Below, in pieces: positions 44,926 to 58,771 of a stretch of DNA of 64,000 bases. The position numbers and the translations under genes were made by a program. The notes under the pieces are model-generated. The model did not search any database. It saw only the letters and a program-made list of their open reading frames with translations, and was not told the origin of the DNA. The stretch comes from a virus (lineage: Duplodnaviria > Caudoviricetes): positions 45,729 through 109,728 of the IMG/VR virus record IMGVR_UViG_3300021255_000042. One strand, written 5' to 3'. Every line of letters begins with the position of its first letter. The first letter of the stretch is position 1.

Positions 44926-46056
44926 TTAGATATGGTTGCTTATCCACATTATGCCTTTGTTCCGTTCCTTACCATCGGTAAGCTGGGTGGTTTCTGATTT
45001 TCCGGTCTCAACCTCTTTCTTCTTCCTTTCCAGGAGAGACTTATACCAACCGGAAAGATCGGTGTTTGCAAGCGCATCGTTCAGTGCAACAATAGTGTCT
45101 GCCGTGATTTGAACGTTGTCGCTCGGCTCAACCGCCACGCAGGTAATGGTGTACGGCTGGATATTCTTGAAGGTCTGCGATTCAAGCTTGAAATCCTGGA
45201 TGATGATGTTGTCAACACCGAACTGCTTGAACAGAAGATGATTTACCTGAACCACTCCGTTGTACTGGCAAATCTTGATGAGCCGCTTCACATCGTCCTG
45301 CGGATAAACGCCTGGAAGGTTGGAATTAATGGCACCGCTTATGGAGAAGCAAATGTCACCACCGGACACCAGCTCTTTCCTCGTATAATCGCGGCCTTCA
45401 ACTTTGTTGAGGATCACGTTTTTGGATGTGGTCTGGGAAACCTGCGGGGTAACGTCATAGAAGAAAATCTGCTTCGATTTGACAGTCCTCTTCGTAGGCC
45501 CCTCCATATACGTTATATCCATAGGCTCCTTAACCTTGTAGCTAAGGATAAGGGCTTCAGGAACAAGTCTGCCGAAAGCGTCAAGAGCGTTCACCTGGTC
45601 GTTGCTATCCTCCAGCTTCAAAACACCGAGACCGCTGTCAACCTTCTCACCGGCATCTATGATTATTTGGCTATTAGCCGCCTGGTTCTCCAGAATGTTC
45701 TTGCGTCTCTCGCGGTCGGCCTTAATTTCAGCCTGCCGCGCCTCGTTCTGGGATTTGATTTCATCGATGGCTGTCCGAACGTTCTTGTGGCCAAGCCACC
45801 TGAAGGCTGCATTCACGTAACCGCTACCAATCTCCAGGGCGACATTTGCATAATGTTCTGCAAGCTGAAAGCCGATTCGCTTTGCGGTGTGAACAATCAC
45901 ATTCTCGTAGGCACGCTCACTCTTATAGTAAAGCATCCCATCGCGGTTCTGGAACCTCGCATAATATGTGTTGCTGGAGAGTATGTTCTGCGTTGCAGCA
46001 CCTACACTCCAGACAACGTGCTCCCAAGGAAGCAATTGACTTACCGGTATAGCCAT
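44926..46056 (-). CDS. tail tube initiator-like protein (DUF6046-like)
   Basis: KNVILNKVEGRDYTRKELVSGGD motif, located after the tape measure gene. Confidence 0.55.
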   Translation of the reverse strand: MAIPVSQLLPWEHVVWSVGAATQNILSSNTYYARFQNRDGMLYYKSERAYENVIVHTAKRIGFQLAEHYANVALEIGSGYVNAAFRWLGHKNVRTAIDEIKSQNEARQAEIKADRERRKNILENQAANSQIIIDAGEKVDSGLGVLKLEDSNDQVNALDAFGRLVPEALILSYKVKEPMDITYMEGPTKRTVKSKQIFFYDVTPQVSQTTSKNVILNKVEGRDYTRKELVSGGDICFSISGAINSNLPGVYPQDDVKRLIKICQYNGVVQVNHLLFKQFGVDNIIIQDFKLESQTFKNIQPYTITCVAVEPSDNVQITADTIVALNDALANTDLSGWYKSLLERKKKEVETGKSETTQLTDGKERNKGIMWISNHI

Positions 46057-49714: not shown

Positions 49715-49919
49715 ATTTCTTGGTCGTTGAGGCTAAAGCTGCGAGAGAGTTTGCCGCCTTTATTTGCACTTGGTGAGCATCAAACCATGCCGCATCGTTG
49801 GCGAAAATGGCGAACTCTTCTTCTGACAGCTCTTCGATTTTTACAGCTGGGAAGTAATGTCTGATGTAAATCGTGAAGTGACGGAGATAATCATCGTCCG
49901 CTACTTTCCAGCTTTCGAT
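49713..49919 (-). CDS. tail assembly chaperone -1 frameshift extension (gpGT-like, 68 aa)
   Basis: Not in the ORF track. Open -1 frame IESWKVADDDYLRHFTIYIRHYFP...TTKK entered at slippery A-AAT-TTA (49919-49925). Confidence 0.8.
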   Translation of the reverse strand: MESWKVADDDYLRHFTIYIRHYFPAVKIEELSEEEFAIFANDAAWFDAHQVQIKAANSLAALASTTKK

Positions 49920-50284
49920 AAATTTACCAGACGACCGTTGCGGGCCTCGATGACCTTGGCGAACTGGTTCATGGTGCCGAACAGGAACATATTGTCATCG
50001 TTGACAAGTTCGATGTCGCCGTCCACGAAGCAGTCTTTCGCAAGCTGGCGCATTGCGGAAACCTGGTCTTTCTGGGAGGCCGTGATGTACTTGCTGAACG
50101 CGGCGAGAGACGGTTGCTGGAAGTAGCCGACATAGTGCTCCTTCTCATCGACATCAGGAATTCCGTACACGAGAAGAGGGAAAACAGCCTTCAGTTTCTT
50201 GGTCTCTTTCAGTTCAGCGACCTTCTTTTCGATCTCCTTCTGGAGCTCCTTCGGGAGTTCGAGCATTTCGAGTTCTTCGTTCAT
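49901..50284 (-). CDS. tail assembly chaperone (gpG-like)
   Basis: 127 aa between tube and tape measure genes, with a slippery site near its end. Confidence 0.8.
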   Translation of the reverse strand: MNEELEMLELPKELQKEIEKKVAELKETKKLKAVFPLLVYGIPDVDEKEHYVGYFQQPSLAAFSKYITASQKDQVSAMRQLAKDCFVDGDIELVNDDNMFLFGTMNQFAKVIEARNGRLVNLSKAGK

Positions 50285-56008: not shown

Positions 56009-56511
56009 TACGGCAAACCAGCAAAAATCTTTGGTGTCAATTCCTTTATCTTTCTATCAAGCACCGTTGAGTGCCCGATGAATTGTCTCTGTATGCTGCG
56101 CCTCCCAGTATTACCGTAGGTGTAAGTACCGCTTGGCGCATTATGAACCGCCGCATAACAAAAACCCTTATGCCTGGCTGCGGTCAAATATTTTGATGGG
56201 TTCGTGTAAATCCGAACACCACCCTTGTTCGGCCCAGGCGCATCGTTCAGGTACTTCCATTCGATCGAATTCATCATCGTGCCGGTCTCCCTGAGGATTT
56301 CGTGCTTATAGTTCCGCTTCCTCGGTTTCCATGTGCGCGAACCGCTCGTGTTCAGCCGGTGCATATCGAACGACTGCTTGAATATGTCAACTGCGGCCCT
56401 GGCAAGTTCGACCTCAAAATTCCATACATTCAACTGGAAGCGGTGAGAGGCGTGCATCCATTGCTGCACGAACATCTCAGGTTTCAACTGTATGCCGCCC
56501 TTCTTAGCCAT
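56008..56511 (-). CDS. phage virion morphogenesis (Mu gpG-like) protein
   Basis: WKPRK..ILRETGTMMNSI, YAAVHN, IQRQFIG. Confidence 0.8.
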   Translation of the reverse strand: MAKKGGIQLKPEMFVQQWMHASHRFQLNVWNFEVELARAAVDIFKQSFDMHRLNTSGSRTWKPRKRNYKHEILRETGTMMNSIEWKYLNDAPGPNKGGVRIYTNPSKYLTAARHKGFCYAAVHNAPSGTYTYGNTGRRSIQRQFIGHSTVLDRKIKELTPKIFAGLP

Positions 56512-57352
56512 TCAGGTATTTCTCCTTTATCCGTTGAACTATCTCGGCCAGCCTGCCGGAATCGTTCGTGTTCACTTGGAAGTAAGGATGCTCATCCGAG
56601 AATATCCTACCTCCCAAGGCAACGCTCTCCTTAAACGTTGGATTGAACCAGTCCGGCATCGAAGGAATCTTCAGCGCGGCATTCTGCACCTTATCCAGCT
56701 TGAAGTTCGCATCATCGACTTCAACCAGGTAGCACCGGCACTGATGTTCAATCGGCGGGATCAGCCATTCCGGGAAGCGGCTCTTCGGTGCCGTGAATCC
56801 TTCGTACTGGAGGTGCCAGGGACGCACACGCTCATCGCCCTGCGTCATATACATCAACTCCGTGTCAGCCGGTATCACCACAAGAGCATCGGCTATCATC
56901 ATAGCATACTCAATATCCAAATTCTCAACATGGGCGTACTGAGAATTGTACGTCTTGCACACGCCTACAAGCAGCTCACGAATTTCATCTTCATCCAGCT
57001 CCTTCTCACGCGCCTCTTCAGCCACATTGTCTGCCTCGGACATCATCTGGTATTCCTCGGCAACGGCAAACTCTGCCAGGTTGTTGATTGCAGCTATAAT
57101 AATGTCTGCGCGTGCGCGGTCGAGTTCGGAGAGACTTTCGAGGTTGGACTGGATGAGTTGTATCGCATCGTCCCACTCCATACCGAAGCCGTGAATCGCG
57201 TGGTGGATTGCGAAGTCGGCGCGAAGGGCCATAAGTTCCTCCATCACTTCCCAGGGCTCTTCCATACCGTCACGCTCGTCCAGGAAACGCTCGAAGATTG
57301 CGAGGATAGCAAGATATTCCTTCTCCTTATCCTCGTCCGAGATTTCAGGCAC
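56504..57352 (-). CDS. MuF / SPP1 gp7-like minor head protein
   Basis: YMTQGDERVRPWH...PPIEHQCRC. Only a GTG start; probably reached by frameshift from the portal. Confidence 0.88.
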   Translation of the reverse strand: MPEISDEDKEKEYLAILAIFERFLDERDGMEEPWEVMEELMALRADFAIHHAIHGFGMEWDDAIQLIQSNLESLSELDRARADIIIAAINNLAEFAVAEEYQMMSEADNVAEEAREKELDEDEIRELLVGVCKTYNSQYAHVENLDIEYAMMIADALVVIPADTELMYMTQGDERVRPWHLQYEGFTAPKSRFPEWLIPPIEHQCRCYLVEVDDANFKLDKVQNAALKIPSMPDWFNPTFKESVALGGRIFSDEHPYFQVNTNDSGRLAEIVQRIKEKYLNG

Positions 57353-57390
57353 CTTCTGTGCAACGGCCCTGGAGAGTTCGTTCGCGCCCT

Positions 57391-58722
57391 TTAACGCCTC
57401 TCCCTTAAAAAATTTACCGCTTTTTCTCCCCTACGATGACCGTATCTTCGATAATACTCCTCGTCCGACATAATGTGATGGTCGTTTGGGCTTGTGGGGC
57501 CACCCACAGAACCACCGCCGACCCCATCCATAACATTAAGCTGCCGACCAACGACAATCCCAAAGTTTTTCTCAATTTCGTCAGCACTGACTTCATAACG
57601 CTCAGTAATAAATTCGTAGAGTTTAATCTGATCTTCATCAGACATTTCGATTTGCTTGCAGTACTTGAATTCGTTTCCAGCCTTCAAGAATCCCATTTTT
57701 ACGAGCCTGGGGATTATCTGCTCGTTCATTATGTTCTCGATGGAATCGCGGTACGCCTCCACGCGGTCGCGGAAGATGTCTTGGTGCGCACGGGTTGCGC
57801 CAACATAAGACTGCGTAGCACCGGCCATAGATTCAGAACCGAGGATAAGGTTCGAGACATCACGGTCAACCATCGCAATAAGGCCGGTGAAGATGTGCTC
57901 TGAATTCGACATCGTGAATGTCTTGATGTCAATTTCATCATCCAGGCCGGTCACGATGACCTTATTGGTGGCTGCGCTGGCGATGTCATTTGCCAGACGC
58001 TTACGATCGTTGTTGTTGTCTGCCGCCGCCTTGCCGTGAATGATGGGCTGGCCGTAGGTGTGTGAGAAATTCACGTAGTTGGCCATCGTGAACTTCTTGG
58101 CAAGGATAGACGGGGTTGTGGCCGCGAAAAGACCAATGCCGCCGGTATCAATCAGGATGTAGTTGTCGCGGTATTGCTCATCATCAAAGCTCCAACCAGG
58201 AACCCAGCACCCAGAACGCTGGCAAATCCTGCGCTGGGAAGGATATATGTTGCGGCGTTCGACCTGATTTACCTGAGCCAGACGACCGGTAAGCGGGCAA
58301 ATGTCAGGCATAATCTCGAAGCCGGTATAGCCGTACAGCTGGGCCTCGACAATGCCCCAGATAATCTTGGTAAATTCAGTTCCCTGGATTTTCTTGGTTT
58401 CCTCGTTGTCACGAACATACTTGCCCTTTTCATTCTGGTGGCAGAGCATATACCGTTCTCCGATAATCTGGGATTTGAGGGTTTCCAGGGTGCCCACGAG
58501 GTGCGCGTCCTGTTGTACGCACGCTTCGTAAAGGTCGATGAGCTTACTACGGTCATCGACAACAAAGCCGTTCTTCGCATCCTTCGGACGGATGGAGCGG
58601 AATCGGCAGTATCTCTCTATTTCACGAACATATTCCTGAATCGTCTTCTTGCTGGTGCGGAAAACAGCATCAAGCAATTCGAGATCAAGCTTCTCTTCGC
58701 TACTATTTGTTACTACGTCCAT
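57391..58722 (-). CDS. portal protein (DUF935 / Mu gp29-like)
   Basis: LIDLYE..QDAHL, EAQLYGY, FSHTYGQP, VSNLILG. Likely start MDVVTN. Confidence 0.85.
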   Translation of the reverse strand: MDVVTNSSEEKLDLELLDAVFRTSKKTIQEYVREIERYCRFRSIRPKDAKNGFVVDDRSKLIDLYEACVQQDAHLVGTLETLKSQIIGERYMLCHQNEKGKYVRDNEETKKIQGTEFTKIIWGIVEAQLYGYTGFEIMPDICPLTGRLAQVNQVERRNIYPSQRRICQRSGCWVPGWSFDDEQYRDNYILIDTGGIGLFAATTPSILAKKFTMANYVNFSHTYGQPIIHGKAAADNNNDRKRLANDIASAATNKVIVTGLDDEIDIKTFTMSNSEHIFTGLIAMVDRDVSNLILGSESMAGATQSYVGATRAHQDIFRDRVEAYRDSIENIMNEQIIPRLVKMGFLKAGNEFKYCKQIEMSDEDQIKLYEFITERYEVSADEIEKNFGIVVGRQLNVMDGVGGGSVGGPTSPNDHHIMSDEEYYRRYGHRRGEKAVNFLRERR

Positions 58723-58744
58723 TGCAGCAATACGTTTTATTGAA

Positions 58745-58771
58745 GAATAGCTCAAAACCCCATTTTCAGTT
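58745..58771 (-). promoter_or_regulatory. putative late promoter AAC-N18-CTATTC
   Basis: Lies 23 nt upstream of the portal ATG. Confidence 0.6.

Follow-up and report, generated by a model that had tools for sequence, protein, structure and literature searches.

A predicted programmed −1 ribosomal frameshift between the portal and MuF genes of a gut Bacteroidales phage

Introduction

The window analysed here is a 64-kb stretch (positions 45,729 to 109,728) of the IMG/VR virus record IMGVR_UViG_3300021255_000042, a record of 109,728 bp with direct terminal repeats. The element in question is the junction between its portal gene and the adjoining reading frame of a MuF-like minor head protein. 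Comparison of this junction with its relatives indicates that a programmed −1 ribosomal frameshift of the classical type very probably joins portal to MuF in this gut Bacteroidales phage. The features of a canonical −1 signal occur together: an in-phase slippery heptamer has a structure 5 nucleotides (nt) downstream, where about 5–9 nt is expected; the −1 frame is open into conserved coding sequence that has no conserved start; and signal and phase are kept in relatives, where signal loss goes together with the gain of a separate start codon. The portal, MuF and tail-chaperone-type features described below all lie on the minus strand.

Relatives were collected by a portal scan of viral contigs, which gave 80 loci with 62–94% identity, and by a portal scan of prokaryote genomes, which gave 48 loci, mostly prophages and several of them in cultured strains. 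The prophage hosts belong to Bacteroides, Phocaeicola, Alistipes, Segatella, Parabacteroides, Butyricimonas and Muribaculaceae. A further relative, Bacteroides phage BS-TP1 (PQ571274.1, locus L082; 111.7 kb, portal identity 67%), came from a phage collection; it is a cultured phage with B. salyersiae BG8 as host. Usable portal–MuF junctions were obtained from 112 loci and represent 70 unique sequences. The portal stop, the MuF frame, the start of the open frame, the first start codon and any in-phase X_XXY_YYZ heptamer were scored for each locus.

The portal–MuF junction

The portal gene (Mu-type, DUF935; 57391..58755) is listed as an open reading frame (ORF) beginning at TTG 58755 and ending with the stop codon TAA at 57393-57391. 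The true start is likely ATG 58722, giving 443 amino acids (aa), because a 93%-identical database homologue (P0004) is also 443 aa long. The protein matches Portal_Mu PF06074 over profile positions 2–336 of 336 (E 8e-44; 150.8 bits against a cut-off of 23.9). A near-length protein search with the portal returned portal-only relatives of 431–485 aa, which are the lengths that gene callers blind to a frameshift would give. The 3′ end of the gene reads GCG GTA AAT TTT TTA AGG GAG AGG CGT TAA. The −1 frame is closed by a TAG at 57433-57431 and stays open from there until the MuF stop at 56506-56504, a run of 308 codons; its translation past the TAG begins GRKSGKFFKGEALKGANELSRAVAQKVPEISDED. Counted from the slip site, the −1 frame (56504..57415) has 303 codons (KFFKGEALK...) plus the stop and bears a coding signature.

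The core of Phage_Mu_F (PF04233) matches at 56726..56869, that is, residues 183–230 of the −1 product. The window MuF scores 25.2 bits when searched alone, below the cut-off of 29.6, and PF04233 matches at E<=0.01 are found in 24 of 26 aligned MuF relatives (best E 1.7e-8). On this profile evidence, the −1 frame probably encodes a MuF-like minor head protein similar to SPP1 gp7 and Mu gpF. Its position directly downstream of the portal gene also agrees with the context rule of PMC5576092. A sequence-profile search of the PDB with the MuF alignment gave no match, nor did Foldseek with the AlphaFold MuF model at E<=0.001.

The slippery heptamer A_AAT_TTT (type X_XXY_YYZ; 57409..57415) stands 22 nt before the portal stop in the portal phase, its AAT and TTT being codons of the portal. 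It is present in the portal phase, 22 or 25 nt before the stop, in 61 of the 70 unique junctions, and MuF lies in the −1 frame relative to portal in every one of these 61. All seven bases of the heptamer are invariant in them, three being portal third-codon positions, while the third-codon positions that flank the heptamer on both sides show all four bases. The codon that precedes AAT specifies eight different amino acids (V, A, E, T, G, S, L, K), yet it ends in A throughout.

The coordinates that a first-pass annotation of the window had given for this junction all proved correct, including those of two overlapping in-phase heptamers and of a hairpin 5 nt after the first. Both heptamers are indeed in phase, but only A_AAT_TTT is conserved. 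The second, T_TTT_TTA (57406..57412), occurs in at most 16 of the 61 junctions and would be separated from the hairpin by only 2 nt, so that it is probably not the main slip site and A_AAT_TTT is the predicted functional one. The spacer between A_AAT_TTT and the hairpin (57404..57408) measures 5 nt, and the core stem begins 5 nt downstream in nearly all relatives. No upstream Shine–Dalgarno-like stimulator is evident at the portal site; Bacteroidota make little use of Shine–Dalgarno pairing. A resemblance to the Bacteroides −7 promoter box (TAnnTTTG) was considered and discarded, as the match is not conserved and many relatives have GCAAATTTT instead.

The predicted stimulatory RNA hairpin (57371..57403) consists of an outer stem, GGAGAG/CUCUCC, with arms at 57403-57398 and 57376-57371, and an inner stem, GCGUU/GGCGC, with the portal stop codon at the apex. 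When sequences are folded one by one, the hairpin appears in every heptamer-bearing junction with its core stem 5 nt downstream, at −11.5 to −26 kcal/mol, and junctions without a working signal fold weakly (−2.7 to −6.4 kcal/mol). The conserved helix reaches 10 bp in relatives. Its stem sequences vary by lineage and include GGGAGAG/CUCUCCC, GGAAGGAGAA/UUCUCCUUCC, GGGAAUGAAG/CUUCAUUCCC, GGGAACGG/CCGUUCCC and GGGAGCG/CGCUCCC.

A covariance model was built on an ungapped alignment of 13 sequences with a hand-defined structure, then rebuilt and used to realign. It matches exactly once per locus in the 61 sources, each time at the portal 3′ end, with no further match elsewhere on either strand of 545 kb; the sole match in the window is at 57365-57416. 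Across 49 distinct sequences, 90.3% of the cells are paired, the outer six pairs are unbroken in all 49, and compensatory changes occur in 7 of the 10 pairs (112 cells). None of 500 column shuffles reached the observed covariation score, and sliding the 3′ partner by 1–3 columns reduced pairing to 44–74%. The slippery site and the constant −1 phase for which the first-pass annotation had suggested looking in the portal 3′ ends of relatives are thus both kept, with the phase constant in all 61 heptamer-bearing junctions, and are joined by a covarying hairpin. RNAalifold on a plain MAFFT alignment returned only a 5-bp helix, which is spurious because the 3′ arm had been aligned in two registers. 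An intrinsic terminator was also rejected as a reading of the hairpin, since the T-run that would follow it is absent. An Rfam scan of 57200-57600 matched no family; the cassette of 52 nt with its covariation is itself a candidate RNA family.

Natural loss of the signal

Nine unique junctions have no working signal (L038, L065/69, L102, L120/121, L037, L104 and L043) and serve as natural controls. In all of them except L043, MuF has an ATG of its own at −5 to +23 of the portal stop, and in five of the nine it lies in a phase other than −1. Among the 61 junctions with the signal, an ATG between −10 and +30 is found in only 3. The L065/69 and L102 junctions read AAC TTT, have no hairpin, and place an ATG 7 nt past the stop with MuF in the +1 phase. 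L120/121 reads AAT TTC, again with no hairpin; its ATG overlaps the stop, and MuF is in the +1 phase. L038 likewise has AAT TTC and no hairpin, and an ATGA overlap. The hairpin is kept in L037 (G_GAT_TTT) and L104 (TCT TTT), both with an ATG at +23, and in L043 (G_AAT_TTT), which has no nearby ATG.

On a portal tree from a quick IQ-TREE search, rooted at the midpoint, the distribution of the signal takes five changes by parsimony, at least three of them forced by well-supported branches. Because the signal-less sequences are nested among signal-bearing ones on this tree, the signal looks ancestral to the sampled clade, and its repeated loss seems to have gone along with the gain of a start codon on each occasion.

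Start codons and coding signal of MuF

The MuF ORF had been described in the first-pass annotation as having only a GTG start, and GTG 57352 (57350..57352) is indeed the first ATG, GTG or TTG in the frame, 41 nt past the portal stop. It is not conserved as a start: the same position is GAG in L003 (71% portal identity), and from the alignment GTG 57352 is probably an ordinary Val codon. When the −1 products are aligned from the slip site, the first canonical start varies in position between codon 7 and codon 83. It comes after a conserved EY..I...F block in L003, L018-22, L020, L034, the L026 group, L072/76/98, L083 and BS-TP1. There are thus at least eight lineages in which the first start lies downstream of a conserved and confidently folded helix, and the L072/76 junction is also present in isolate genomes (e.g. 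L098/100/101/107/125).

An AlphaFold2 model of the −1 product, made from a 26-sequence alignment, has a mean predicted local distance difference test (pLDDT) score of 87.8. The EY..I...F block is modelled as a helix at residues 27–48 with pLDDT 90–98. Before it, the first ~20 residues after the slip form a predicted disordered linker (57356..57415), with pLDDT <50 at residues 1–18 and order from about residue 21. According to the model, initiation at the late starts would therefore give a product that lacks a conserved folded element. Further, pairwise codon differences in the segment that follows the hairpin and precedes any start are 0.36/0.34/0.58 at codon positions 1/2/3, which argues for coding selection in the −1 frame there; downstream of the first ATG they are 0.44/0.28/0.67.

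The consequences for annotation can be seen in BS-TP1. In the deposited annotation, MuF (gp44) begins at an internal ATG 113 nt past the portal stop and no frameshift is marked. In this region of the BS-TP1 record (PQ571274.1 3756-3900), the resulting gap has no stop in the −1 frame, codes for the conserved N-terminal helix, and contains A_AAT_TTT with a GGGAGAGGGG/CCCCUCUCUCC hairpin. The MuF gene is systematically mis-annotated; the BS-TP1 call leaves a 113-nt gap and drops the conserved helix.

One junction is found in identical form in prophages of several genera (L098, L100, L101, L107 and L125), whose hosts are Bacteroides ndongoniae, B. propionicigenes, Phocaeicola coprophilus DSM 18228, Alistipes sp. 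i18-0019-D1 and B. gallinarum DSM 18171. Its first MuF-frame start is 227 nt past the portal stop. The wide, near-identical spread of this junction recalls the Mu-like Hankyphage (PMC6199706).

The same slip type at the tail-chaperone site

Two copies of the 9-mer GGTAAATTT are present in the window, one at the portal end and one at 49928-49920. The second copy belongs to a tail-assembly-chaperone-type −1 frameshift pair (49715-50284), composed of a 127-aa ORF (50284-49901) and a −1 extension of ~70 codons ending at 49715. The slip site of this pair, A_AAT_TTA (49925-49919), is in phase and 22 nt before the stop of the 127-aa ORF. Just downstream of the extension lies a tape-measure-like ORF of 1190 aa (49630-46058). 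The statement in the first-pass annotation that this 9-mer also forms the tail-chaperone slip site holds and extends to relatives: in five of them, including BS-TP1 and one phage without the portal signal, A_AAT_TTA (A_AAT_TTT in one) is found at −22 of the homologous ORF stop, followed by −1 extensions of 63–66 codons.

The portal and chaperone sites therefore have in common both GGTAAATTT and the −22 distance to the 0-frame stop. As the phage uses this slip type at the one frameshift site established for tailed phages, the competence of the slip type in the host is supported. The portal–MuF pair is not itself a lambda-type G/GT pair, the actual G/GT-like pair being the one at 50284-49715; the portal–MuF site works like G/GT but is no member of that class.

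Alternative explanations

Several observations weigh against a frameshift. Asn-Phe is kept in the portal protein even in junctions that have no signal, so conservation of the heptamer partly reflects protein constraint. The window hairpin has a minimum free energy of −12.9 kcal/mol, among the weakest of the relatives, and compared with dinucleotide shuffles is not significant alone (z −0.31); a signal above chance is not demonstrable from the window sequence by itself and becomes clear in the comparison of relatives. The alignment from which pairs were counted had been fitted to the structure by the covariance model, which favours that structure, although the same pairing result came from per-sequence folds and from the hand-aligned subset. 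We know of no trial of A_AAU_UUU as a slip site in Bacteroidota. In some relatives an ATG stands at +23 to +56, or a start overlaps the stop in GTGA. Together with the window GTG 41 nt past the portal stop, these starts mean that some independent MuF initiation at GTG 57352, or free MuF in some lineages, could occur.

The most serious alternative takes this last point further. MuF would be translated independently, from GTG 57352 in the window and from varying or non-canonical starts in relatives; the heptamer would reflect portal Asn-Phe conservation, and the hairpin would serve coupling, mRNA stability or processing. The short distance from the portal stop to the window GTG, the nearby ATG or GTGA starts of some relatives and the persistence of Asn-Phe where the signal is lost are all expected under such a scheme, which we nevertheless consider unlikely. 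The position of the start is not conserved, and the start comes after the well-folded conserved helix in at least eight lineages. Efficient initiation at GTG 57352, which the first-pass annotation had set against its own proposal, is at odds with the GAG found there in L003. The portal stop varies among TAA, TGA and TAG, so that the GTGA overlaps are not selected and look like by-products instead of a coupling device. In addition, the synonymous heptamer positions and the preceding wobble base are invariant only alongside the hairpin and the −1 phase, and AAC or TTC appear where these are absent. Translational coupling needs no constant −1 phase, yet the phase is −1 in 61 of 61 junctions.

Transcriptional slippage on the A3T6 run would yield mRNAs one base longer or shorter without any recoding by the ribosome. 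RNA polymerase is known to slip on long A/T runs in bacteria and phages, and the window has a T6 run. However, most relatives have only T4 (AAATTTTC), far under the ~8–9-nt runs that support such slippage, and a covarying hairpin at 5-nt spacing is the hallmark of ribosomal frameshifting, which makes polymerase slippage highly improbable. Lastly, an assembly indel in the homopolymer run at the junction (portal and MuF then being one ORF), also raised in the first-pass annotation, or decay of MuF into a pseudogene is scarcely credible, since the same arrangement recurs in 61 distinct junctions, drawn from independent metagenomes, from isolate genomes and from a cultured phage, with a MuF frame that is intact throughout and has a coding signature.

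Proposed mechanism and implications

In the frameshift that we propose, the P-site tRNA-Asn of a ribosome at A_AAU_UUU would be paired with AAU and its A-site tRNA-Phe with UUU, while unwinding is resisted by the hairpin 5 nt downstream. Some of the ribosomes would then slip one base back in a tandem slip, with tRNA-Asn moving from AAU to AAA and tRNA-Phe from UUU to UUU. Ribosomes that do not shift would terminate six codons later, inside the hairpin, and shifted ribosomes would read past the portal stop within the hairpin and translate the whole MuF frame. The expected products are a plain portal of ~443 aa and a portal–MuF fusion of ~739 aa. More exactly, the predicted fusion is the portal through Asn-Phe plus 301 residues, or 739 aa from ATG 58722 and 750 aa from TTG 58755. 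The predicted junction is ...AVNF/FKGEALK, so that the junction peptide would be AVNFFK in the window phage and NFSSGEGAVGPTPLSNIVALK in BS-TP1.

Within the fusion, the disordered linker of ~20 residues would tie MuF to the portal C-terminus. Portal C-termini face the capsid interior; a few MuF copies would therefore come to lie inside the head if fusion subunits are built into the dodecameric portal ring. The efficiency of frameshifting would set the copy number of MuF, and an efficiency of ~10–15% would give one or two fused subunits per dodecamer. A head protease gene is annotated downstream in BS-TP1, and cleavage of the linker by such a protease may be a later step. Both the slippage itself and the entry of the fusion into the portal ring are what we infer from the arrangement. 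We further think it reasonably probable, with less confidence than for the frameshift as such, that in most of the clade MuF is made solely as a frameshift extension of portal and that recoding efficiency fixes the number of MuF copies per virion.

If true, the mechanism answers how an internal head protein of one or two copies is counted and delivered to the portal vertex, with a small, translation-set share of portal subunits carrying MuF covalently. The clade lends itself to testing, as it includes a cultured phage and prophages of type strains (Bacteroides oleiciplenus YIT 12058, Phocaeicola coprophilus DSM 18228 and Bacteroides gallinarum DSM 18171).

Other observations on the clade

The portal carries the motif SDEEYY[KR]RYGH.RG (57436-57480; residues ~425–440), which is strongly conserved across the clade; it follows a low-complexity, Gly-rich stretch and lies shortly before the slip site. 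In loci L060/L061 (3716-4314), which belong to a GC-rich lineage, the −1 frame is open for 598 nt inside the portal gene, probably as a chance effect of base composition.

A group of loci (L105, L106, L108, L116-L119, L124, L040 and L057), with portal identities of 62–66%, is without the N-F-L motif, the heptamer and the hairpin. The gene that follows these portals adjoins them directly, is started by ATG and begins MRITLEQFCEQ... in most; a tblastn comparison with the window MuF gave no match. It may represent a different MuF type or a replaced gene. Three contigs of the clade (L085, L086 and L092) occur in metagenome-assembled genomes labelled Eubacteriales, Eggerthellaceae and Clostridiales (Bacillota or Actinomycetota bins), a placement that most likely reflects mis-binning of phage contigs.

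Comparison with known systems

Sites of −1 frameshifting that pair a heptamer with a stem-loop include Escherichia coli dnaX (A_AAA_AAG) and orfAB of the IS3 family, and the slip site of Rous sarcoma virus gag-pol, A_AAU_UUA, is of the AAU_UUN type. The portal–MuF site is similar to these in its X_XXY_YYZ heptamer, a spacer within 5–9 nt and a stable downstream structure, and differs in the genes and the host concerned. Programmed frameshifting in phage structural genes is textbook knowledge for tail chaperones and for some capsid and tail proteins, and lambda G/GT is not known to need a downstream hairpin.

The tail-chaperone G/GT −1 frameshift is found in lambda and most long-tailed phages, according to the accounts of Levin et al. 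(1993) and Xu, Hendrix & Duda (2004) given in PMC7911831 and PMC3483164. As in G/GT, the downstream ORF at the portal site would have no start of its own and be made only as a C-terminal extension, with two products in a fixed ratio for virion assembly. The likeness extends to the phage's own G/GT site, which has the same heptamer type (A_AAT_TTA) and the same −22 distance. In contrast to the tail chaperones, the pair here is a head pair, portal and MuF, whose joining would presumably keep a minor head protein attached to the portal ring, and the portal–MuF site has a strongly covarying downstream hairpin.

In-frame portal–MuF fusion genes have been described in Microbacterium phage clusters EA3/EA5/EA8 and EB (PMC7302621). 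Similarly, a search among proteins for longer relatives returned a single in-frame fusion, the metagenomic P0003 (828 aa), which combines Portal_Mu with Phage_Mu_F and aligns to both window proteins (E 5e-8 for the MuF alignment). Since such genes exist, a covalent portal–MuF fusion is evidently tolerated in nature. The end product, a portal with a C-terminal MuF domain, would be the same, whereas the in-frame genes involve no recoding and every subunit carries MuF; in the window phage the majority of subunits would be plain portal, with only the frameshifted fraction fused. Full-text searches of the literature brought up in-frame portal–MuF fusions and numerous frameshifts at tail chaperones, and no case of recoding at a portal gene.

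[quoted passage not shown] (2000) and Stiege et al. (2003) are summarised in PMC5576092. As far as that summary goes, gp7 resembles the window protein as a MuF-family minor head protein that is encoded directly after the portal and enters the procapsid via the portal. It differs, within the same account, in being a separate polypeptide with its own start that binds non-covalently, whereas in the window phage the link would be covalent and set by translation. The mechanism of the portal–MuF frameshift is canonical, while the gene pair that it joins and the purpose that it would serve are new.

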